NCBI GenBank assembly: GCA_015233235.1
Contig: JADFYD010000001.1
Coordinates: 1-41,908 of the forward strand
Length of the DNA: 41,908 nucleotides
From: Candidatus Omnitrophota bacterium
GTDB taxonomy: Bacteria > Omnitrophota > Gorgyraeia > Tantalellales > Tantalellaceae
Direction of reading: 5' to 3'
The notes below the pieces were generated by a model, which made no database searches, was not told the DNA's origin, and saw nothing but the letters and a program-made list of their open reading frames with translations. Positions 1-41,908 of this stretch are shown one piece after another. Made by a program: the position numbers and the translations under genes. Each line of letters begins with the position of its first letter. Position 1 is the first letter of the stretch.

Positions 1-2
1 GG

Positions 3-365
3 GATATTTCCGACGTCTCGTTTAATACGCATCCGGAACAAGCTTTACCGAATACGCTGAATGTTTCTTTCAGCGGCGCCGAAGGGGAGGCGCTTCTTCT
101 CTATTTGGATCTTGAGGGTATCGCTGTTTCGACTGGGTCAGCCTGCGCTTCGGGTTCGTTGGAACCCTCACATGTGCTTATGGCGCAAGGCGTAGGCGAG
201 GAAATGGCGCATAACTCCATACGTTTTAGTTTGGGCAGGAACAATACGGCTGAAGATATAGAATATGTTCTTGCCGCTCTTTCCGGCATAGTAAAAAAAG
301 TTCGGGACATATCAACGAGTTATTCGGCGAAAATGTGCGCGAAAGACGGCGGGGCTATCGATTGA
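3..365 (+). CDS. iscS: Cysteine desulfurase IscS/NifS, C-terminal part (runs off the window start; the N-terminal part is at 7050-7727 on the minus strand)
   Basis: Frame is open from nt 3: DISDVSFNTHPEQALPNTLNVSFSGAEGEALLLYLDLEGIAVSTGSACASGSLEPSHVL...SIRFSLGR. Has the group I SxGSAC catalytic-Cys motif and lies directly upstream of iscU. Confidence 0.93.
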   Translation, partial: DISDVSFNTHPEQALPNTLNVSFSGAEGEALLLYLDLEGIAVSTGSACASGSLEPSHVLMAQGVGEEMAHNSIRFSLGRNNTAEDIEYVLAALSGIVKKVRDISTSYSAKMCAKDGGAID

Positions 366-415
366 CAAGCTTTTTGCCGTTCCTCTTTCGCGTCATAAAA
401 AAATGCGAGGCTTAG

Positions 416-832
416 ATGGAATGGGTATATACTGACGAGGTTAAAGACCACTTTATAAATCCGCGCAATGTGTTTTTGGATGAAGAAAAATTTGTCTATA
501 ACGCGTCCGGCAAATCCGGGAATATCAAATGTGGTGACGAAATGGCGTTTTATCTCTTCGTGGACGATTCTACAAAAGTTATCAAAGATTGCCGCTGGAA
601 AACCTATGGCTGTGCCAGCGCTATAGCGAGCACGTCGGTACTTTCTGAGAAGATAAAAGGTATGACAATTTACGATGCCTATAAAATCACCCCGAAGGAG
701 ATAGTTGATACCCTTAAAGGGCTTCCGGCCCACAAGATCCACTGCTCTGTTCTGGGCGATGACGCCCTTCGTGTCGCTATTGACGATTATTGCTCTAAAA
801 ATGGCATTAATATAAAAACACAAAAAAAATAG
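416..832 (+). CDS. iscU: Fe-S cluster scaffold IscU/NifU N-terminal domain protein
   Basis: Motifs [28 protein letters not shown] and KIHCS give the three conserved Cys. Confidence 0.93.
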
Positions 833-843
833 GAAGGTGGAGA

Positions 844-984
844 ATGGACAAATTTGTATGTACGGTATGCGGATATGTGTACGATCCGGCTCAAAATGAC
901 AACGTTCCATTTGATAAACTTCCGGAAGATTGGGTATGTCCCGAGTGCGGTGTAGGGAAGGACTTATTTGAAAAGGTCAGCTGA
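844..984 (+). CDS. rub: Short rubredoxin (46 aa), not in the ORF track
   Basis: My translation: [46 protein letters not shown]. Two CxxCG motifs; RBS-like GGAAGGTGGAG upstream. Confidence 0.95.
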
Positions 985-1009
985 TTATCTTTAGAACAAG
1001 GAGGAGAGA

Positions 1010-1546
1010 ATGATAGGTGATAAAATGGCAAAAAGTATAAGCCAGCAGATCACGCGTGAGCTATATTCCGCGTATTTGTATGTCGGCATGAGCGCATATG
1101 CTGATGGTATAGGGTTGAAAGGCGTTGCAAATTGGTTTTTTGTGCAAATGCAGGAAGAAATGGTCCATGCGTACAAGTTCTATGCCTACGTTAATCAACA
1201 AGGCGGAAAAGTTTCTCTTGGAGGGATCGATAAACCGACACAGGACTTTACTTCCGTTAAAGATGCGTTCAAAAAGACACTTGAACATGAACGGACAGTG
1301 ACGGCGAATATTAATCAACTTATGGCGCAGGCGAAAGAAGAGAAAGACGCGGCGACGGAAATCCTGCTTCAATGGTACGTGACCGAACAGATCGAGGAAG
1401 AAGCGAACCCGACTGAAATACTTCAAAAACTTAATTTAGCGGGTGAAGGGAATGGACTGTTCCTTATAGACGCGGAACTAGCCAAAAGAACTTTTGTCGT
1501 GCCGGCGGGTGTTCAGGTAGGTTACGCTCCGGCGGCTGTGGCATAA
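1010..1546 (+). CDS. ftn: Non-heme ferritin
   Basis: Ferroxidase-centre motifs QITRELYSAYLY, QMQEEMVHA and LQWYVTEQIEEE; AGGAGG RBS. Confidence 0.93.
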   Translation: MIGDKMAKSISQQITRELYSAYLYVGMSAYADGIGLKGVANWFFVQMQEEMVHAYKFYAYVNQQGGKVSLGGIDKPTQDFTSVKDAFKKTLEHERTVTANINQLMAQAKEEKDAATEILLQWYVTEQIEEEANPTEILQKLNLAGEGNGLFLIDAELAKRTFVVPAGVQVGYAPAAVA

Positions 1547-1589
1547 GATCGGTTGCACATGAACACATTTTTGGGGGCGGGTCCCCAGA

Positions 1590-1617
1590 GTAGGGGCACG
1601 GCGTGCCGTGCCCCTGC
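1590..1617 (+). repeat. GTAG-type REP-like palindrome
   Basis: GTAGGGGCACGGC-GT-GCCGTGCCCCTGC: 13-bp arms with one G-T wobble, starting with GTAG. Confidence 0.6.
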
Positions 1618-1660
1618 CCTGAACGATGAACCATGAATCATGAACCAAAATAGGAGCGCC

Positions 1661-2350
1661 ATGAATAAATGTGTACTGCAGAATATTTCCTACGGTGTGT
1701 ACGTCATTTCATCGGTAAAAGATGGCAAATACAACGGGCTGATCGGCAATTGCGTCATTCAGATAACAAATGAGCCGATCACGATCGCCATCAGTATTAG
1801 CAAAAAGAACCTCACCCATGATTTTATTATGTCCAGCGGATTGTTCACGATATCTATTCTTGATAGGACGGCGCCTTTGAAGTTTATCGGACAGTTCGGG
1901 TTTAAGTCAGGGCGCGATACAGATAAGTTTGTGGGAGTAGGATATAAGGTTCTCCCATCCGGTTGTCCGTTGGTAACGGACCATACACTTAGCTGGATAT
2001 CGGCAAAAGTGCTGAAAAATATGGATTGCGTCACACATACACTGTTTTTAGCCGAAGTTATGGATGGTGACACACTAAAAAACGGCGAGCCCATGACATA
2101 CGAGTATTATCATCAGGAAAAACGCGGTACAACACCAGAAAACGCTCCGACTTTCATAAAAAACTCGGATCAAAAGATCTGTGCCACGGGTTCAAAATAC
2201 CGGTGCTTGGTATGCAACTATATTTATGACCCATTGTTGGGAGATAAAGATAGCGGTATTGAACCGGGCATTCCTTTTGAAAAATTGCCTGATAACTGGG
2301 TCTGCCCGATATGCGGTGTCGGAAAAGACCAATTTGTAAAGGTGGACTAA
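1661..2350 (+). CDS. hrb: Flavin reductase-rubredoxin fusion (high-molecular-weight rubredoxin)
   Basis: N-terminal flavin reductase domain ([37 protein letters not shown]) and C-terminal rubredoxin ([10 protein letters not shown]...WVCPICG). AGGAG RBS before ATG 1661. Confidence 0.9.
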
Positions 2351-2351
2351 T

Positions 2352-3512
2352 ATGAAAGCGCTGGAGATCAAAAAGAACGTATACTGGGTTGGGGGGATCG
2401 ACTGGACGCTAAGGAATTTTCACGGATATTCTACAAAAAGCGGTTCCTCATACAACGCATATCTTATACTGGGCGAGAAAAAGATACTTATCGACACGGT
2501 GAAAGAGTATCTTTTCGATGAAATGCTGTCCCGAATAGAATCTGTATGCGATCCAGCATCGATCGATATTATAGTTTCCAACCATACCGAAATGGACCAT
2601 TCTGGTTCTATCGAAAAATTATGCCGTATCGCCAAGAACGCGGTCGTTATGGCTTCGCCGAACGGCGAGAAGGGCCTTAAAAAACATTTTTTCGGCGATC
2701 TGAACATAAAACCGGTCGCCAGCGGAGAAACTTTAGACTGTTCGGATCACAAACTGCAGTTTTTCCATATGCCGATGGTGCACTGGCCTGATTCCATGGC
2801 GACATATTGTCCCGAGAAAAAAATTCTTTTTCCTAATGACGCTTTTGGCCAGCATATCGCATCAACCGAACGTTACGATGACGAAATGGATTTTGGTTTC
2901 GTAAAACAAGAGGCCACTAAATATTACGCGAATATCGTTCTTCCGTACGGGTCTCAGGTCAACGCGGCTCTGGGCGCTCTGGGGGGACTTGACTTTGATA
3001 TTATTGCGCCAAGCCACGGGCTGATTTGGAGGAAGCATATTCCGGAAATACTGGCGTTATACAAAAAATGGTCGGATAACGAGACGGAGAACCGGGGGGT
3101 CATAGTTTATGATTCCATGTGGCATTCAACCGAACGGATCGCGTATGCGCTTTATGACGCTTTTTGTGAGAAAAAAATATTCGCGGAATTATCTGACCTT
3201 AAAACGAACGATATTTCAGACCTTATGACCAAAATACTTGAAGCTAGATATATTTTTGTAGGTTCGCCGACGCTTAATAACGGCATGTTGCCCACTGTCG
3301 GAGGGTTTTTAACCTACTTAAAAGGTCTTGCTCCGAAAAAGCGTGTAGGTATGGCTTTTGGCTCTTATGGATGGGGCGGGCAAAGCATCGGTCAGATAGA
3401 AACGGTGCTGAAAGATTCCGGTTTCGCTATGCTTGACAGCATTAAAGTTCAATATGTGCCCGACAAAGCGGTCCTTAAGGGAATAACGGAACGCGTTACT
3501 AAACTGCTGTAA
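2352..3512 (+). CDS. fprA: Flavodiiron protein FprA (O2/NO reductase)
   Basis: Diiron ligands NHTEMDHSG, HWPDSM, DAFGQH and PSHG; flavodoxin domain (YDSMWHST, GSPTLNN, FGSYGWGG). Confidence 0.95.
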   Translation: MKALEIKKNVYWVGGIDWTLRNFHGYSTKSGSSYNAYLILGEKKILIDTVKEYLFDEMLSRIESVCDPASIDIIVSNHTEMDHSGSIEKLCRIAKNAVVMASPNGEKGLKKHFFGDLNIKPVASGETLDCSDHKLQFFHMPMVHWPDSMATYCPEKKILFPNDAFGQHIASTERYDDEMDFGFVKQEATKYYANIVLPYGSQVNAALGALGGLDFDIIAPSHGLIWRKHIPEILALYKKWSDNETENRGVIVYDSMWHSTERIAYALYDAFCEKKIFAELSDLKTNDISDLMTKILEARYIFVGSPTLNNGMLPTVGGFLTYLKGLAPKKRVGMAFGSYGWGGQSIGQIETVLKDSGFAMLDSIKVQYVPDKAVLKGITERVTKLL

Positions 3513-3573
3513 AATAAATCGGTCAGCGGTAAATAACACTCAAAATCAAGAACTGTAAAAATGGAGGTAGCGA

Positions 3574-3951
3574 ATGACGGTCCTAAACGATGTTTACAAG
3601 TGCGCTGTTTGCGGTAATGTTGTCGAGGTCGTGAATGCAAGTGCCGGCACGCTCGTATGTTGTGGTCAGCCAATGAACCGACTCGAAGCCAAAACTGCCG
3701 ATCAGGGGAAAGAAAAACATGTTCCGGTAGTTACTGAATCGGGCGGTAAAGTTACCGTTGCAGTGGGCAGCGTTGAGCATCCGATGCTCGATAATCACTA
3801 CATAAAATTCATAGAGGTTTTGACGAAAGACAAAGTCTTGCGAGCGGATTTGAAACCGGGTATGAAGCCTTCGGCAGTGTTTGATGTCGCAAAAGCAGAC
3901 ATTGTCACGGTGCGGGAGTATTGCACGGTGCACGATTTGTGGAAAGCGTAA
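3574..3951 (+). CDS. dfx: Desulfoferrodoxin (2Fe superoxide reductase)
   Basis: Desulforedoxin domain CAVCGN...LVCCGQPM; SOR ligands EKHVP, HPM, HYI and CTVHDLW. Confidence 0.95.
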   Translation: MTVLNDVYKCAVCGNVVEVVNASAGTLVCCGQPMNRLEAKTADQGKEKHVPVVTESGGKVTVAVGSVEHPMLDNHYIKFIEVLTKDKVLRADLKPGMKPSAVFDVAKADIVTVREYCTVHDLWKA

Positions 3952-3975
3952 ATAAAAGAAAAACTGGGGGTATCA

Positions 3976-4551
3976 ATGGCATGTTTGAAAGGATCAAAGA
4001 CGGAGAAGAACTTGTTAGCGGCATTTGCGGGAGAATCACAGGCTAGGAATAGGTACACGTATTTCGCGAGTATCGCGAAAAAGGCCGGATACGAACAGAT
4101 AGCGGCGATATTCCTTGATACGGCCGAAAACGAAAAGGAACACGCTAAGAGATACTTTAAATTTCTGGAAGGCGGAATGGTCGAAATCCAGGCGAAATAT
4201 CCCGCCGGTGTTCTGGGCGAAACAGTTGAAAATTTGAAGGGCGCCGCCGCCGGTGAACATGAAGAATGGACTAAGCTTTACAAAGAAGCCGGTGATGTCG
4301 CCGAAGCCGAGGGATTTAAAGATGTAGCCGTCGCTTTTCGCAGTATTTCTAAAGTCGAGGAGCAACATGAAAAGAGGTACAGGAAACTTATCGAAAATCT
4401 GGAAAAGTCTAAAGTCTTTAAAAAAGACGTTCCTGTGAAGTGGAAATGCCGTAACTGTGGGTTTGTACATGAAGGTAAAGAAGCAGTGGAAAAATGCCCG
4501 GCGTGTCTGCATCCTCAGGCGTTTTTTGAGGTATTGGGGGAAAATTATTAA
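3976..4551 (+). CDS. rbr: Rubrerythrin
   Basis: AFAGESQARNRY, ENEKEHA, GEHEE and EEQHE, plus C-terminal WKCRNCG...CPAC. Confidence 0.96.
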   Translation: MACLKGSKTEKNLLAAFAGESQARNRYTYFASIAKKAGYEQIAAIFLDTAENEKEHAKRYFKFLEGGMVEIQAKYPAGVLGETVENLKGAAAGEHEEWTKLYKEAGDVAEAEGFKDVAVAFRSISKVEEQHEKRYRKLIENLEKSKVFKKDVPVKWKCRNCGFVHEGKEAVEKCPACLHPQAFFEVLGENY

Positions 4552-4560
4552 GGAGAAAGC

Positions 4561-4794
4561 ATGAAGAAAGTCACTGTATATTCAACGCCTATGTGCGGGT
4601 ATTGCATAAGGCTGAAGCAGTTTTTGGATCAGAAGGGTGTGGAATATGAAACGATCGACATATCGAAAGACCCGTCGAAACTCCAGGAATTGGTAAAAAA
4701 ATCCGGGCAGATGGGCGTGCCGGTGACGGACATCGAGGGGAAGATCATTGTTGGGTTTGATAAGCAGGAGATAGTTGAGGCGTTGGGAATATAA
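4561..4794 (+). CDS. Glutaredoxin-like NrdH/YruB redoxin
   Basis: VYSTPMCGYC active site, SGQMGVPV and IVGFD. Confidence 0.9.
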   Translation: MKKVTVYSTPMCGYCIRLKQFLDQKGVEYETIDISKDPSKLQELVKKSGQMGVPVTDIEGKIIVGFDKQEIVEALGI

Positions 4795-4820
4795 TTCGCT
4801 AGCAACTCCATGGATAATAC

Positions 4821-5729
4821 ATGGCACACGTATATGATCTCATAATCGTCGGCGCCGGGCCGGCCGGGATAGCGGCTAGCGTTTATGCCGCCCGTAAAAA
4901 ACTTGATTTTCTTGTTCTCACCGGAAATATCGGCGGGCAGGTCACCTGGACCGCTGATGTCGAGAACTACGTTGGTTTTCAGTTTATTACGGGTCCGGAC
5001 CTTGTAGGAAAGTTTGAAGAGCATATACAAAAATATAACGTACCGGTCTATGAAGACGAGCTGCTTGATAGAATAGAAAAAAAAGACGACACTTTTATTT
5101 TGACGACTCGTAAAAATGTTTTTTCGTCACGGTCCGTCATACTTGCCACCGGAAAAAGATCAAAAGAATTGAATGTTCCGGGCGAACAACAATTCAGGAA
5201 TAAGGGCGTGGCTTATTGTGCCACCTGCGACGGCCCTCTTTTTTACGGCAAACGCGTGGCTGTCATAGGAGGGGGAAATTCCGCCATGGAGGCCGCCCTT
5301 CAACTTCTGTCTATAGCAGATAAAACCTATTTACTTACTGTTAATAACGAGCTTTACGGCGACGCGATCCTGAAAGAAAAAATAATTAGTGCTGGCAGGG
5401 TTAATGTTATCACCGGTGCCGTCGTAACTTCTATAACGGGGGATAGCTTTGTCGGTTCTATTACTTATGAAAAAAATACCGTGCAAAATTCACTTCCGGT
5501 GGATGGCGTGTTTGTTGAGATAGGGCTGGTTCCTAACACCCAATATCAAAGTGGGCTTGAATTAAATGAGATCGGTGAAATTAAAGTTAACCTCAGGAAC
5601 GAAACTAATATCCCCGGGATATTTGCCTGCGGTGATGTTACTGATGTCCCTGAAAAACAGATTATAATAGCGGCCGGTGAGGGCGCGAAAGCGGCGATCA
5701 TGGCGGGGAAGTATTTGAGCGCCAGATAG
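4821..5729 (+). CDS. trxB: Thioredoxin-disulfide reductase
   Basis: GAGPAG FAD motif, YCATCDG, GGGNSA NAD(P)H motif and GIFACGDVT. Confidence 0.92.
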   Translation: MAHVYDLIIVGAGPAGIAASVYAARKKLDFLVLTGNIGGQVTWTADVENYVGFQFITGPDLVGKFEEHIQKYNVPVYEDELLDRIEKKDDTFILTTRKNVFSSRSVILATGKRSKELNVPGEQQFRNKGVAYCATCDGPLFYGKRVAVIGGGNSAMEAALQLLSIADKTYLLTVNNELYGDAILKEKIISAGRVNVITGAVVTSITGDSFVGSITYEKNTVQNSLPVDGVFVEIGLVPNTQYQSGLELNEIGEIKVNLRNETNIPGIFACGDVTDVPEKQIIIAAGEGAKAAIMAGKYLSAR

Positions 5730-5759
5730 ACATAACGTTGTTCGTCGTTCGTGGTTCGT

Positions 5760-6395
5760 ATGAAAATAGAAGATCTCTTTAAACAATATGCGAAGCGAAA
5801 ACAAGGGATCCGTGCGAGGCTGCGCGAGTTCAGGAGCATCCTCGATGCGGGAGAAGAAGATGTTTTCGCGGAGCTGTGTTTTTGTATATGCACGCCGCAA
5901 TCAAACGCTGTCCTTGCCGACAGGGCGATATCACGGTTAAAAAAGAGCGGCAGACTTTATGACGGAACATTCGATGAGATGCGGCCGGGTATGTCGGGGG
6001 TGCGTTTTCCTAATAACAAGACGCGATTTTTATTAGAAGCACGGCAACTTTTTATTGAAGACGGCAAGATCGGGATAAAGAAACACATTAATGCGCGCGA
6101 CGTCTTTTCGACACGACAGTGGTTTTATGAGCATGTGAAAGGTTTGGGGCTAAAAGAGTCCAGCCATTTTTTGCGGAACATCGGATTGGGTTCGTCGCTC
6201 GCGATACTTGACGTTCATATTTTAAGGCGCATGGTCGCGTTTAATGTGATAAAAGAAGTGCCTAAAACATTGTCCGTTAAAACATATTTTGATCTCGAAA
6301 AAAAACTTGCTCATTTTTGCTCATCCATCGGTATACCGATGGATGAGCTTGACCTTTTGTTCTGGTCGGATGCCACAGGCTTTATTTTCAAGTGA
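5760..6395 (+). CDS. ogg: 8-oxoguanine DNA glycosylase/AP lyase (archaeal/Thermotoga Ogg2 type)
   Basis: ELCFCICTPQS, HhH motif KGLGLKESSHFLRNIG, AILDVHILR, LDLLFW and a C-terminal Lys. Confidence 0.88.
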   Translation: MKIEDLFKQYAKRKQGIRARLREFRSILDAGEEDVFAELCFCICTPQSNAVLADRAISRLKKSGRLYDGTFDEMRPGMSGVRFPNNKTRFLLEARQLFIEDGKIGIKKHINARDVFSTRQWFYEHVKGLGLKESSHFLRNIGLGSSLAILDVHILRRMVAFNVIKEVPKTLSVKTYFDLEKKLAHFCSSIGIPMDELDLLFWSDATGFIFK

Positions 6396-6437
6396 TCTTT
6401 ACACTCGGCGTGCCGTTAATTTTATGTGAGGAGAATT

Positions 6438-7055
6438 ATGTTTAAGAGGTTTTACACCTGGCAAGTAAGGTTAGCGATCGGTCTCGTGCTGGCGTCGACG
6501 GCGCTTTATGCGGTACATTACTTTATTTTTCGTGATGCGCGTCACATATATTTTTACCTTCTTCACGATATTGGTTTTATCCCTATACAGGTTCTTATCG
6601 TGACGCTCATACTTGACAGGTTCCTTAACGAGTACGAAAAACAAGCTCGTCTAAAGAAATTGAATATGGTCATAGGTACTTTTTTTTCTGAGGTCGGGAC
6701 GGACCTTATAAAGATGGTCTTGAGATACGCGGAAATGGACCAGGGCGTCAAAAACGACATCGCTGCGTTGAAGGATTGGGAAATTAAAAAGTTCTATAAA
6801 ATGGGATGCAGTTTGAGAAAATGTCAGTGCACCGTTAAGGCTTCGAGAGGGGAACTTTCAGATCTCAAGGTTTTTCTGATGAGTAAAAGAGATTTTATGC
6901 TGGCTCTTCTTGAGAATCCAAATCTTTTAGAACATGAGTCGTTTACCGAGCTATTGTGGGCAGCTTTTCATCTTATCGAGGAACTGGCCAACCGGCCCGA
7001 TATACACAGGATACCCGACAAAGATCATGAGCATATTTTGCTTGATACGAAAAGG
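6438..7055 (+). pseudogene. Conserved membrane protein, truncated at the inversion junction
   Basis: Two TM helices, then KKLNMVIGTFFSEVG and [23 protein letters not shown]. After ...DTKR (7055) the track ORF (to 7424) is only the antisense of iscS. Confidence 0.75.
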
Positions 7056-7727
7056 AACACCGCGCTTTACATAAAGCCCTCCCACCCCTTTGGGACCGTA
7101 AAACTTGTGTCCGGAGAAAGTCAGAAAATCAACTCCCAGCTTTTTCACATCGATCGGCACCTTACCCACTGCCTGTACCGCGTCAGTGTGGAAAAAAGCG
7201 CCGTGACTGTGAGCTATTTCGGCTACTTTCGCGACATCGATCAGAGTTCCGGAAACATTATTAGCCATCATGACAGAGACCAGGGAAGTTCTTTCGCTGA
7301 CCTTCGATTCAAGATCGGCAAAGTCCAAGCGCCCGTAACGGTCGACGCCAACATAGTGGATCTTTTGTCCCTTACCGGCGAGACACTTAGCCGTCTCTAT
7401 TATGCATGGGTGCTCGATTTTTGAAGTGACTATTTCGCGGGCGGAGTGAGACTTATCGGTACAGGACATGCAATCGCAGCAGAAAGTGTTAAGTACGGTA
7501 TTATTTGCCTCGGAACCGCTTCCAACAAATATTATCTCTTCCGGAGTGGCACCGATAATTTTCGCGGTAACAGCCCGGGCATCTTCTATTCTTTTACGTG
7601 CCGCCCGCCCTGGTGCGTGTAAACTTGAAGCGTTCCCATAGACGTCAAAATTATCTATTAAAACTTTTTTGACTTCCTCATGCAGCGGGGTAGTCGCGTT
7701 ATTGTCGAGATATATGTGCTTTTTCAT
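7050..7727 (-). pseudogene. iscS: Cysteine desulfurase IscS/NifS, N-terminal ~226 aa, truncated at the inversion junction
   Basis: [38 protein letters not shown] and the PLP-Lys motif [10 protein letters not shown]. Homology stops after VKRGVPF; the rest of the track ORF is antisense to the membrane-protein gene. Confidence 0.9.
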
Positions 7728-7753
7728 TTTTCCTCTTTCAGCCGGAAAAACTA

Positions 7754-8149
7754 TCATACCAGCTCCTTTATTCTAATGTTTTTCAATCGATTTGCAACAG
7801 TTTGTTCAAGTCCGTCAATGTGTATTTTCAATTTACAGCTATTCATCCCGGGACAGGCGATTTTTCCCGATGTGTGGTCGCTCAACGAAAAATCACCCTG
7901 AAATATCATGACGACATTGAAAAGGGTTGTCTCCGGAAGAGAAGATGAGCCTTTAAATCCCCCGCCCTTGCCTTTCATCGCGGTTAAAATACCCTCTTTG
8001 TGCAGTTTTTGCAGTATTTTTCGTAAAAAAGGACGCGGTATACTCAAGCTTGAGGCCATATCTTTCACGGAAATGACCTCTCCCCCTTTAGCCGCCATGC
8101 AGCACAAAGCTCGTATAGCATAATCCGTGTCACGCGTTATTAACTTCAT
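7754..8149 (-). CDS. Rrf2-family transcriptional regulator
   Basis: [17 protein letters not shown] and KGKGGGF wing, with C-terminal H-x6-C-x5-C; directly upstream of iscS. Confidence 0.92.
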
Positions 8150-8634
8150 TTTATCCCCAAACGCGCCTGCATTTCGTTTATATCATAGCCGAAATACAGC
8201 ACTTTCCCAGACTGGTCAATAGCAATTACCGATGGTATACCTCTCACGCCATAAAGGTTGCCTACTTCACCGGTCGTGTCCAAAAGTATCGGATATGTCA
8301 TACCGTTCTTCTTGGCGAAGCCGGAGACTTTCTCCCGTGATTCCTGCACATTTACCCCGAAGACGGCGATCTTCCCTTTATGTTTTTCATAGAATTTTTC
8401 TACAGCCGGTATCTCTGCCCTACACGACGGGCACCAGGTAGCCCAGAAAACCAGTACTGTTTGGTTTGATTTAAGTATGTTATATAAATTGACGTCCTCA
8501 CCTGTCGTGTTCTTAAGAGTGAAATCAACCGCGGTATTCTTCATCTCCGCATTGCCTGTCCCAGAGAAACAAACCTGCAGCAAAAATACTCCTATAAATA
8601 CAAACACGGACAAAATCCTGATTACCCCTTTCAT
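8146..8634 (-). CDS. TlpA/ResA-like exported thiol-disulfide oxidoreductase
   Basis: N-terminal signal or anchor, FWATWCPSCRAEIP and YGVRGIP. Confidence 0.9.
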   Translation of the reverse strand: MKGVIRILSVFVFIGVFLLQVCFSGTGNAEMKNTAVDFTLKNTTGEDVNLYNILKSNQTVLVFWATWCPSCRAEIPAVEKFYEKHKGKIAVFGVNVQESREKVSGFAKKNGMTYPILLDTTGEVGNLYGVRGIPSVIAIDQSGKVLYFGYDINEMQARLGIK

Positions 8635-8662
8635 AACCCCCTCCTCTTTTATGTGACTGCCT

Positions 8663-9364
8663 TTATACGCTCAGAGTTCCGGCCTTGAATATGAAATACG
8701 CTCCAAGCGCAAGCATCAAAAAACCCATTAATTTTTCAATAATACGAACAAACTTGTCCGATTTGGGTAGCGCTTTCATTAACCCGGCAAATGTGCCAAT
8801 AGCCATAAGGACCGTCCCGAGACCGAACGAAAACGTAAATAGGAGTAAAAATCCGAATACTGCATTCTGTTTCGAAGCCGCGAAAGCAAGAAGCGCACCT
8901 ATGACTGCCGTTGTACATGGGGCCGCAATAAGCCCTGAAGCGACGCCCATTACGAAAGCGTTCAAATAAATGCTGTTATGCCTTACCACTTTACCGGCAC
9001 CGACCCTGTTCAAGAAATATGTCGGCAAGGTTATCACGTTGAAAAAAGATAAAGCGAAAAATATTATAAAAGTGCCGACGATCAAATGCGCTATCGGGCT
9101 CGATTGCACCGCCCCGAAAAATTTGCCTGTCAATGCGGCAAAAAGACCTAAAATGGCGAACATCAGCGACATACCGACCACATAAAACAAAGAAACTAAA
9201 AAATTGGTAAATCTGGATTTTTCCTGGGAAGCCCCTATTACACCAACAACTATCGGTACAAGCGGGTAAACACATGGCGTGAATGCAGTAAGTATCCCCG
9301 CGCCATATACTATAAGGAACGTCAGCACATTAATGTTTTCCAACGACAAATGCATATTATTCAT
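8663..9364 (-). CDS. ccdA: CcdA/DsbD-beta disulfide transporter
   Basis: About 6 TM helices with FTPCVYPLVP and AAPCTTAV, the two redox Cys. Start is approximate. Confidence 0.9.
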   Translation of the reverse strand: MNNMHLSLENINVLTFLIVYGAGILTAFTPCVYPLVPIVVGVIGASQEKSRFTNFLVSLFYVVGMSLMFAILGLFAALTGKFFGAVQSSPIAHLIVGTFIIFFALSFFNVITLPTYFLNRVGAGKVVRHNSIYLNAFVMGVASGLIAAPCTTAVIGALLAFAASKQNAVFGFLLLFTFSFGLGTVLMAIGTFAGLMKALPKSDKFVRIIEKLMGFLMLALGAYFIFKAGTLSV

Positions 9365-9378
9365 ACTCAAACCTCAGA

Positions 9379-9408
9379 TAATGATACCATAAATGTATCA
9401 TTAGTCAA
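9379..9408 (-). promoter_or_regulatory. Sigma70 promoter with an overlapping palindromic operator (candidate Rrf2 site)
   Basis: Minus strand TTGACT-16-TATCAT with an extended -10 TG. Perfect inverted repeat TAATGATAC-N7-GTATCATTA at 9379-9403. Confidence 0.65.
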
Positions 9409-9502
9409 ATGTTTTCTTCTTTGAAATCGTAAAGTTTACGTGATTTTGGTGTTTGCAAATTCGGCGTGACGTTTTAAGAGATTAGAAGTTAGAGATATGA
9501 CC

Positions 9503-9560
9503 GCATTAGAAATTCGAGATATTCCGACTAATCTAATATCTAATCTCGAATTTCTAATGC
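9503..9560. repeat. 18-bp inverted repeat within degenerate 7-mer repeats
   Basis: GCATTAGAAATTCGAGAT (9503-9520) / ATCTCGAATTTCTAATGC (9543-9560); units TCTAATA, TCTAATC, TCGAATT, TCTAATG. Confidence 0.7.
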
Positions 9561-9563
9561 TCT

Positions 9564-9618
9564 ACCAAAATAAAAAAGCCTTCAGACATCTTGAGCGTGA
9601 AGGCTTTTTTATTTTGGT
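9564..9618 (-). terminator. Bidirectional Rho-independent terminator downstream of the tRNA locus
   Basis: 21-bp perfect inverted repeat ACCAAAATAAAAAAGCCTTCA / TGAAGGCTTTTTTATTTTGGT with A/T tracts on both sides. Confidence 0.75.
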
Positions 9619-9819
9619 GGAGCTAAGGGGAATCGGCGCCTCCGTCCCGCCTTGCATATTTTTGGCTTCACCTACGTTCGCCAAAAATATGGCGGGACTC
9701 CGGTCGGCCACCCGCCGCCTCAGTTGATAGGAACTGCTCCCTAAGGTCGCAGTTCCCTGTATAAGGCTCGGCGGCTCCCTTCGATTCCCCTTCTGATGAT
9801 GCGTGTAAACAGATAGTCA
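9617..9819 (-). mobile_element. 203-bp structured non-coding element at the tRNA 3' end, with a duplicated att-like tRNA 3' end
   Basis: 19-bp direct repeat GTGGAGCTAAGGGGAATCG at 9617-9635 and 9820-9838; internal hairpins; inverted T-arm copy at 9780-9792. Confidence 0.65.
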
Positions 9820-9820
9820 G

Positions 9821-9893
9821 TGGAGCTAAGGGGAATCGAACCCCTAACCTCCTGATTGCGAACCAGGCGCTCTGCCAATTGAGCTACAGCCCC
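9821..9893 (-). tRNA. tRNA-Ala (anticodon CGC), CCA not encoded
   Basis: GGGGCTGTAGCTCAATTGGCAGAGCGCCTGGTTCGCAATCAGGAGGTTAGGGGTTCGATTCCCCTTAGCTCCA folds as a cloverleaf, with the G3-U70 Ala identity pair and anticodon loop TTCGCAA. Confidence 0.96.
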
Positions 9894-9948
9894 ACGAGAA
9901 AAATATTGTATGTACTGCGGATTTTAGAACAAAATTCCGGAGAAATAC

Positions 9949-10158
9949 TTAAATAGGCTTGGCAAGTTTGACAACAAAATTAGGACCGTCACCTTCCAAT
10001 GTCACATGGCCCTCACGAGCAAGCCACCCAATGCTCATTAAGACATATGACCTGTCTTTACCTAGAGCCGTAATCAGATTCTCCATGGTTTCCTGATTAT
10101 GGTTATTATCAAGGTAGTTCCATATATCCCCGGCGACAAGCCCTATCCTTGTTATCAT
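9949..10158 (-). CDS. Small winged-helix protein (DUF2582-like)
   Basis: IGLVAGDIWNYL...MSIGWLAREG signature; GGAGG RBS before ATG 10158. Confidence 0.8.
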   Translation of the reverse strand: MITRIGLVAGDIWNYLDNNHNQETMENLITALGKDRSYVLMSIGWLAREGHVTLEGDGPNFVVKLAKPI

Positions 10159-10918: not shown

Positions 10919-11320
10919 CTATTCTTGCGCCGTAGCGACATTGATCTGTTTCACGCCTTCACGGCGGCACATATCCCATATTTCTATGATCTTTCCGAAA
11001 TCAGCTTTTTTATCCGCATTGATCAGGATAGGCTGGCAATCTTTAGTCGCCAACGCGATCCGCGATAAAAGAATATCGCGCTCCGTCCGACGTTCGTTTA
11101 TATAGACATCCCCTTTCTCGTCCACGGATATGATAAAAAGGTTTCTCGATAACACTTCACCCGTAACAGCTTTCGGCAAATTGACGCGTATCCCTGGTTG
11201 AAGAATAAAACTCGAGGTCAACATAAAAAATATCAGGAGCAGAAAAAGGATATTAATAAGAGGCGCTATGTCAAGGTACCCTTTTTTTATTTCCAAAGTG
11301 GTTTTTGTCCTAAACTTCAT
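10919..11320 (-). CDS. exbD: ExbD/TolR family protein
   Basis: LDIAPLINILFLLLIFFMLTSSF, VNLPKA and INADK. The usual PLID Asp appears as Asn. Confidence 0.9.
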   Translation of the reverse strand: MKFRTKTTLEIKKGYLDIAPLINILFLLLIFFMLTSSFILQPGIRVNLPKAVTGEVLSRNLFIISVDEKGDVYINERRTERDILLSRIALATKDCQPILINADKKADFGKIIEIWDMCRREGVKQINVATAQE

Positions 11321-17598: not shown

Positions 17599-17745
17599 AG
17601 GCGGCTTTAATGGTATGTTCGAGCACCGTATGAGTCGGCGCCGCGGCCTTAATTAACATACTCTACAGCGTTACACTACGCCTGCTTGATAATAATGGAC
17701 GCGGCGTCCGACCAAGGCGCGCAGAACATACCGTTAAAGCCGCCT
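17599..17745 (+). repeat. Long imperfect hairpin element, copy 2
   Basis: 22-bp arms AGGCGGCTTTAATGGTATGTTC / GAACATACCGTTAAAGCCGCCT and an inner GTCGGCGCCGCG / CGCGGCGTCCGAC stem. Confidence 0.7.
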
Positions 17746-20510: not shown

Positions 20511-20796
20511 GGGGTGATATTTCAAGATATTTCCGAGCCTTTTTAACAGCGCAAAAGTTCGCCCGCACTTGTAGATGCCGCGGTAGATACTTTCCGGACG
20601 AACCCCCGGCAGCGACGTCGGGCTTGGACTTCGAGCCGACAATTTGTTTTCTAATCAAGGCGAGAAGCCGACTCGCTGCCGGATGAGCCCGACTGGCCGC
20701 CGGAGCCGGTCGGGCGTGTTCGGACGGAAAGTATATACCGCGGCATCTTGATATAAACCTTAAAACCAGCTCGAAAATGTCTTAAAATATCACCCC
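20511..20796. mobile_element. MITE-like element with 28-bp terminal inverted repeats enclosing a branched structured core
   Basis: TIRs at 20511-20538 / 20769-20796 (25/28 match), inner inverted repeat at 20573-20596 / 20725-20748 (23/24), several internal hairpins, no credible ORF. Confidence 0.65.
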
Positions 20797-41856: not shown

Positions 41857-41908
41857 TAACGATGCGGCGGGTGGCAACCGTGAAGTCTGAGCGACGAAAA
41901 AATCGATG

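Follow-up and report, generated by a model that had tools for sequence, protein, structure and literature searches.

The DNA analysed here (hereafter the window) comprises 41,908 nt from a Candidatus Omnitrophota bacterium, and corresponds to positions 1-41908 of contig C87 (88,575 nt) of a genome assembly that we refer to as G000 (GCA_015233235.1). Nucleotide 1 of the window is also the end of the contig. G000 consists of 175 contigs totaling 1.59 Mb, is rated 78% complete, and is the sole genome of its genus. The feature of interest is iscS, the gene for a class-V cysteine desulfurase, which appears in the window as two pieces on opposite strands, one at the contig end and the other abutting a truncated membrane-protein gene at position 7050. 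Three open reading frames (ORFs) form the feature: one at 3..365 on the plus strand that is open at its 5′ end, one of 332 aa at 6426..7424 on the plus strand, and one of 268 aa at 6951..7757 on the minus strand. The gene segments that homology assigns within these frames are as follows:

3..365, plus strand: C-terminal fragment of iscS, codons ~284-403, open at the contig end (Aminotran_5 profile positions 297-371 of 371, E 3.8e-12)
6426..7055, plus strand: membrane-protein gene, first 210 codons, with the last 42 codons missing (42-51% identity to homologues in 10 relatives)
7050..7055, no strand assigned: junction hexamer AAAAGG, which reads KR in the membrane-protein gene and PF in iscS
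7050..7727, minus strand: N-terminal fragment of iscS, codons 1-226 (Aminotran_5 profile positions 1-215 of 371, E 2.2e-59)

These segments were compared with relatives of G000, of which G002, G003, G004, G005, and G008 are named below. In all six genomes of the same family that carry an orthologous iscS, the gene is intact, encodes a protein of 389-392 aa, and is directly followed by iscU. The N-terminal fragment from the window is 56-60% identical to residues 1-225 of these six orthologues, while the C-terminal fragment is 61-68% identical to the stretch from residue 283 or 285 to the end. Chance matches can be ruled out, because tblastn of the fragments against one and the same orthologue gave E values of 1e-90 and 4e-42. 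The alignment to the six orthologues ends right after F226 (...YVKRGVPF), and read-through beyond that residue is nonsense. Given that the gap between the matches to the two halves is 174 nt in all six relatives, and that the C-terminal match begins at residue 2, we calculate that 57 codons (171 nt) are absent. The Aminotran_5 domain is therefore not found complete in any single frame, its positions 1-215 and 297-371 lying on opposite strands. The two pieces do not overlap, contain no stops, and neither half is decayed. These results agree closely with an earlier interpretation of the window that was made from the letters alone (the original prediction). It had placed the N-terminal half of iscS on the minus strand from 7727 to 7050, ending in VKRGVPF, and a non-overlapping C-terminus, with iscU after it, on the plus strand at 3-365; the first is supported by Pfam and the six-orthologue alignment, and the second by Pfam, including the NifU_N match downstream. 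It had also put the number of codons missing to the left of nucleotide 1 at 55-60.

The membrane-protein gene on the other side of the junction is likewise incomplete. Its homologues in the 10 relatives align over nearly the whole of the fragment, and homology extends up to residue 210 (...LLDTKR). All nine full-length homologues continue for a further 42-43 residues, as expected if the gene indeed stops prematurely after LLDTKR, which the original prediction had noticed. The family to which it belongs contains 6647 proteins at E ≤ 1e-30, with a usual length of 246 aa.

This very large family is uncharacterized; it bears the precomputed labels PF27246/PF27232, and the fragment itself had no hit in the local Pfam library. 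Of 80 metagenome loci, seven (L040, L043, L083, L084, L094, L095, and L097) have a family member and a gene for a flavodiiron protein, desulfoferrodoxin, or rubrerythrin as same-strand neighbors, which hints at a link between the family and oxygen defense.

At the joint, the hexamer AAAAGG can be read in both genes. Among the membrane-protein homologues, the R is kept in 9/9 and the K in 6/9; among the IscS orthologues, the F is kept in 6/6 and the P in 4/6. Given this degree of conservation, the simplest and most economical reading is that both parental sequences contained most of the six bases, so that up to 6 nt may have been shared. The earlier claim that the hexamer is legible in both genes thus stands, while its description as a microhomology joint is best kept as the most economical interpretation of a match of up to 6 nt. 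The GC skew flips at ~7000, where it tracks gene orientation and fits a real inversion and a chimera alike, and a frame-specific codon score finds the switch at 7050 with small margins.

What an uninterrupted locus would look like can be judged from the relatives and from the genes that flank the two iscS pieces in the window. Those genes are:

416..832, plus strand: iscU, encoding a NifU_N scaffold protein (Pfam NifU_N, E 5e-40)
1010..6395, plus strand: oxygen-defense block (Pfam hits; same order and strand 3′ of iscU in G004, G005, and G008), with genes for ferritin, a flavin reductase-rubredoxin fusion, flavodiiron protein, desulfoferrodoxin, rubrerythrin, glutaredoxin, a thioredoxin-reductase-like protein, and an Ogg glycosylase
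7754..8149, minus strand: Rrf2-family (IscR-like) regulator, upstream of iscS (Pfam Rrf2, E 2.1e-24; same place in G004, G005, and G008)
8146..9370, minus strand: TlpA-like thiol-disulfide oxidoreductase and DsbD/CcdA-type membrane protein (Pfam Redoxin/AhpC-TSA and DsbD_TM; same order in G003, G004, G005, and G008)

In G004, G005, and G008, the order dsbD-tlpA-rrf2-iscS-iscU-...-ogg lies entirely on one strand, and in G004 and G005 it runs on to the membrane-protein gene. Each half of iscS in the window has retained the neighbors of its own side: the Rrf2 gene adjoins the N-terminal piece, with tlpA and dsbD beyond it, and the NifU_N gene adjoins the C-terminal piece. We therefore conclude that a single gene has been cut in two, and that the pieces do not derive from two paralogues. 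Re-orienting positions 1-7049 together with the absent 171 nt rebuilds a co-directional cluster, as had been foreseen from the suggestion that flipping the left ~7.2 kb would restore one operon; the comparison of synteny in related genomes that had been proposed as a check likewise came out in its favor. In the native order deduced from the relatives, the two joined points would lie ~7.2 kb apart (7049 nt within the contig and 171 nt estimated from the relatives). In G004 and G005, the membrane-protein gene is followed by a Memo/AMMECR1 gene, whose orthologue in G000 is found on another contig, C161, from residue 177 onward.

Once re-oriented, the cluster resembles an iscRSU-type operon followed by oxygen-defense genes as found in anaerobes. 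The Rrf2 gene comes first, followed by the class-V cysteine desulfurase and the NifU_N scaffold protein, and gene content and order match those of G004, G005, and G008. It differs from such an operon in the division of iscS between the two strands and in the absence of 57 codons.

The junction at 7050 does not stand alone in the assembly. We audited all 350 contig ends for exact matches of at least 40 nt elsewhere, and found that 24 ends match another place, in 30 matches, 28 of which fall on internal sites. In 11 matches the length is exactly 127 nt, as is characteristic of a de Bruijn graph with k = 127. Five matches are to a site on the same contig, four of them inverted at distances of 1.1-8.1 kb (C153, C155, C161, and C162) and one direct. 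Of particular relevance is C161 (locus L118), the native downstream neighbor of the locus, which carries the Memo/AMMECR1 gene together with RsmE-like, MiaB-like, and dnaG genes. At its left end, positions 1-127 repeat 5726-5852 exactly in inverted orientation, and this 127-nt piece of the Memo/AMMECR1 gene is joined to the 3′ end of dnaG. At its right end (6289-6418), positions 6292-6418 repeat 4260-4386 exactly in direct orientation, and the Memo/AMMECR1 gene is joined to a MiaB-like piece. These joins create an ORF that looks like a MiaB-Memo-AMMECR1 fusion and leave dnaG cut at its 3′ end.

Joins may also lie within contigs, as at 7050. A plain list of opposite-strand ORF overlaps was of no use, its 865 pairs being mostly shadow ORFs. 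The internal scan was restricted to convergent ORF pairs in which both members are coding-like and overlap by at least 90 nt. The first version of the codon log-odds used for this purpose failed to separate sense from antisense, and the frame-specific version that replaced it served solely as a filter. Eight tail-to-tail candidates, including 7050, were obtained. On C30, at ~2421-2432 (L111), a NuoD-like gene (profile positions 2-113 of 271) is cut against an antisense gene for a Proton_antipo_M antiporter subunit (1-69 of 294). In all three relatives that have both (G008, G004, and G002), these genes share a contig and a direction; the homology of both ends within 2421-2432, leaving a zone of 6-12 nt that is ambiguous at the joint. 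On C131, at ~5029-5051 (L116), an AA_kinase gene (2-147 of 234) meets a PlsY gene (1-138 of 164). The G000 assembly contains no other copy of either NuoD or PlsY. On C113, at ~7613-7721 (L113), a P-type ATPase gene is cut at position 116 of 181 of the E1-E2 profile, beside the end of a complete Glu/Gln-tRNA synthetase gene, and on C102, at ~10961-11070 (L112), the HemD domain matches only to position 132 of 231. We consider C131, C113, and C102 to be probable further gene-truncating joins. As a separate observation, the C113 ORF has a complete phosphotransferase system (PTS) EIIA-2 domain ahead of the ATPase N-terminus.

Taken together, we favor a chimeric origin of the junction at 7050-7055 over a chromosomal rearrangement, with a probability of roughly 85%. 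The anatomy of the contig, the intact order in the relatives, and the several similar joins in the assembly are matters of direct observation, and it is the last of these that tips the balance: a chimera is favored over an inversion because the assembly carries several short-range, inverted, gene-truncating joins. Separate inversions through iscS, nuoD, plsY, and dnaG in one living cell are unlikely, whereas the presence of chimeric molecules in the data set would explain them all together. The original prediction had correctly regarded a chimera as plausible, but had set it about level with a real inversion, and that parity no longer holds once the other inverted joins are considered.

A likely source of such molecules, and one that we infer along with the existence of an intact iscS in this organism, is amplification of the DNA before sequencing. 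The native locus would have the order dsbD-tlpA-rrf2-iscS-iscU-ferritin-(oxygen-defense genes)-ogg-membrane-protein gene, followed by the Memo/AMMECR1 gene that is now on C161. During library preparation, most likely by phi29-type whole-genome amplification, a growing strand would have copied the sense strand from the middle of iscS to codon 210 of the membrane-protein gene. After its displacement, it would have annealed by a short stretch of complementarity (at most the six bases of AAAAGG) to the opposite strand at codon 226 of iscS, 7.2 kb back, and resumed synthesis there. The resulting chimeric reads or read pairs would have made the de Bruijn assembler attach the 7-kb piece in reverse, while the native continuations (171 nt of iscS, and ~0.7 kb with the tail of the membrane-protein gene) were presumably either uncovered or left in pieces below the 2-kb cut-off of the assembly. 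The smallest contig in G000 is 2013 nt, so the 171-nt and ~0.7-kb pieces could not have been retained as separate contigs. A join with no more than six shared bases cannot arise from k-mer overlap alone; hence, either the reads carried it, or abnormal pairs drove scaffolding, and by our reasoning each of these routes needs chimeric fragments. Two of the three gaps of exactly 10 N in the assembly are flanked by an exact inverted copy 0.2-1.5 kb away on the same scaffold (5218-5338 versus 5546-5666 on C173, and 5293-5337 versus 3735-3779 on C168), which shows that the scaffolding route by abnormal pairs was active as well.

The study by Lasken & Stockwell (2007; PMC1855051) describes chimeras formed by multiple displacement amplification (MDA) that have a similar geometry. 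Of 475 MDA chimeras analyzed there, 85% were inverted, and of the 406 inverted ones, 337 linked segments separated by less than 10 kb; complementarity of at least 2 nt was found in 93.5% of the inverted joins below 10 kb, and jumps to an upstream and to a downstream second segment had about the same frequency. The geometry of the join at 7050 fits this picture. It is inverted (iscS codons 1-226 on the minus strand against membrane-protein codons 1-210 on the plus strand), it connects points 7.2 kb apart and so belongs to the class below 10 kb, it jumps upstream, and up to 6 nt may be shared, where 2-21 nt of complementarity would be expected of an MDA-type joint. Moreover, further joins of a similar type occur in the same assembly (both ends of C161, C30, C131, and the links between contig ends). 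It differs from the published cases in that they were single reads of a known genome, while here the join is known from a finished contig alone.

Several points weigh against this interpretation. Neither iscS residues 227-283 nor the tail of the membrane-protein gene has a significant match anywhere in the G000 assembly, so that the intact form remains a presumption for this organism. Nor was any same-species sequence found elsewhere: with the membrane-protein fragment as query, no same-species DNA was found among metagenome contigs (the best identity was 51% among the best 80 loci, most of which lack the wider synteny of the window), and no same-species protein was found among 5.8 billion clusters, where the top identity among the 6647 proteins was 55%. 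The junction is known from the contig sequence only, no sequencing run being listed for 1-10000, and amplification of the source DNA is an assumption on our part. Short microhomology is equally compatible with illegitimate recombination in vivo. In addition, a two-branch graph predicts that the contig should end at iscS codon 227, and the actual end lies 171 nt further in, which is unexplained. Lastly, the Pfam run on internal joins was confined to the seven other tail-to-tail candidates, with five head-to-head candidates left out, and for three of the seven (C114, C118, and C158) it gave no evidence either way.

The best-surviving alternative, though an improbable one, is a real 7.2-kb inversion that the sequenced cell or population underwent very recently, by microhomology-mediated illegitimate recombination. 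The breaks would fall after codon 226 of iscS and codon 210 of the membrane-protein gene, would inactivate both genes, and would part iscU and the oxygen-defense genes from the promoter region of rrf2-iscS. Such an event would be in keeping with a junction sequence that is clean and lies within one contig, with the shared hexamer, and with the absence of both the native middle of iscS and the membrane-protein tail from the assembly. A loss of iscS might be covered by another class-V aminotransferase paralogue of G000, encoded on C125 (91 bits). A flip in vivo that breaks iscS and uncouples iscU and the oxygen-defense block from the Rrf2-controlled promoter, with the cell surviving on that paralogue, seems to us slightly less credible still. 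An inversion would destroy a gene that is intact in all six relatives, and neither half shows any decay. The reciprocal junction has not been seen, the contig ending before its expected place, and the other inverted joins cut core genes (NuoD, PlsY, and DnaG) and cannot all be viable. None of the 24 ORFs tested in 1-20362 encodes a recombinase or transposase domain, and no inverted repeat is present at 7050, the longest inverted pair in 1-9500 being 26 nt with 73% complementarity; the absence of a recombinase and of long inverted repeats had already been remarked upon in the original prediction.

The same results set the locus apart from site-specific invertible DNA switches of the Hin/Gin/Cin and FimB/FimE type. 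There is a superficial likeness, in that a segment of a few kb is oriented opposite to its neighbors and adjoins a regulator and the start of an operon. However, no flanking inverted repeats occur at the visible end, the second end being off the contig; no recombinase gene accompanies the segment; and the breakpoints cut two coding sequences (iscS, less 57 codons, and the membrane-protein gene, less 42) instead of sparing them.

More remote than an inversion is the idea that the join was made in silico, with scaffolding or gap-closing having merged two contig ends by a 6-nt overlap, in which case the junction would exist in no single sequenced molecule, and the hexamer would stem from the rule for joining ends and not from chemistry. 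An overlap of only 6 nt may suffice for SPAdes-type scaffolders to fuse two ends, a point on which the 6-12 nt ambiguous zone at the C30 joint speaks neither for nor against. The assembly was scaffolded, given that it contains 39 runs of N, including the three 10-N gaps, two of which have the inverted flanking copies described above for C173 and C168. On the other hand, an exact 6-nt overlap of two ends is rare by chance, and normal read pairs cannot support the orientation, with the result that chimeric fragments would still be needed and the proposal becomes a variant of the chimeric join that we favor. We give almost no credence to a pair of iscS paralogues, namely an intact plus-strand gene with its N-terminus left of nucleotide 1 and a truncated minus-strand copy at 7050-7727, since, even though the sequence to the left of nucleotide 1 lies off the contig, the pieces (1-226 and ~284-403) are non-overlapping, match the same orthologues with similar identity, sit with the genes found on the two sides of a single gene in relatives, and the minus-strand copy ends inside a membrane-protein gene that is itself truncated.

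Some additional observations concern the neighboring genes and the rest of the window. The 3′ part of ogg contains, at 6319-6348, a perfect palindrome of 30 nt made up of two 15-nt arms without a loop. The spacer between ogg and the membrane-protein gene is ~0.9-1.1 kb in G004 (L023:9349-10273) and G005 (L024:9258-10336), versus 30 nt (6396-6425) in the window, and holds an open frame of 124 aa in G004 and 371 aa in G005. In both of these genomes, a small additional rubredoxin-like match separates iscU from the gene after it. Three groups of short repeats were also noted. The first is a dispersed repeat of ~143 nt, with a copy at 17601-17743 and 18 further BLAST hits of ~84-93% identity on at least 11 other contigs, which looks like a small element of the miniature inverted-repeat transposable element (MITE) type. 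A second family, of ~150-180 nt, has copies at 20574-20749 and C87:75406-75557 that are 77% identical, and occurs also on C64, C10, C11, C137, C33, and C5 at 74-95%. Finally, a ~155-nt element that begins at 41861-41908 and continues to C87:42015 has a 99.4% copy at C87:68036-68190, and copies of 97-99% on C59, C123, and C98.

Overall, the junction at 7050 is most likely not a biological feature. Taken at face value, it would imply that this bacterium has lost iscS, carries a truncated membrane-protein gene, and keeps its oxygen-defense genes without their promoter, and none of these should be concluded from the window. In particular, with the join most likely chimeric, the oxygen-defense genes have probably not been severed from their promoter, as had been suggested for the case of a real inversion. 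The practical value of the finding is as a warning that G000 contains short-range, inverted, gene-truncating joins at C87:7050, on C30 and C131, probably on C113, and at both ends of C161. Apparent pseudogenes, split genes, and odd fusions elsewhere in this genome need similar scrutiny before they are interpreted as the biology of the organism.

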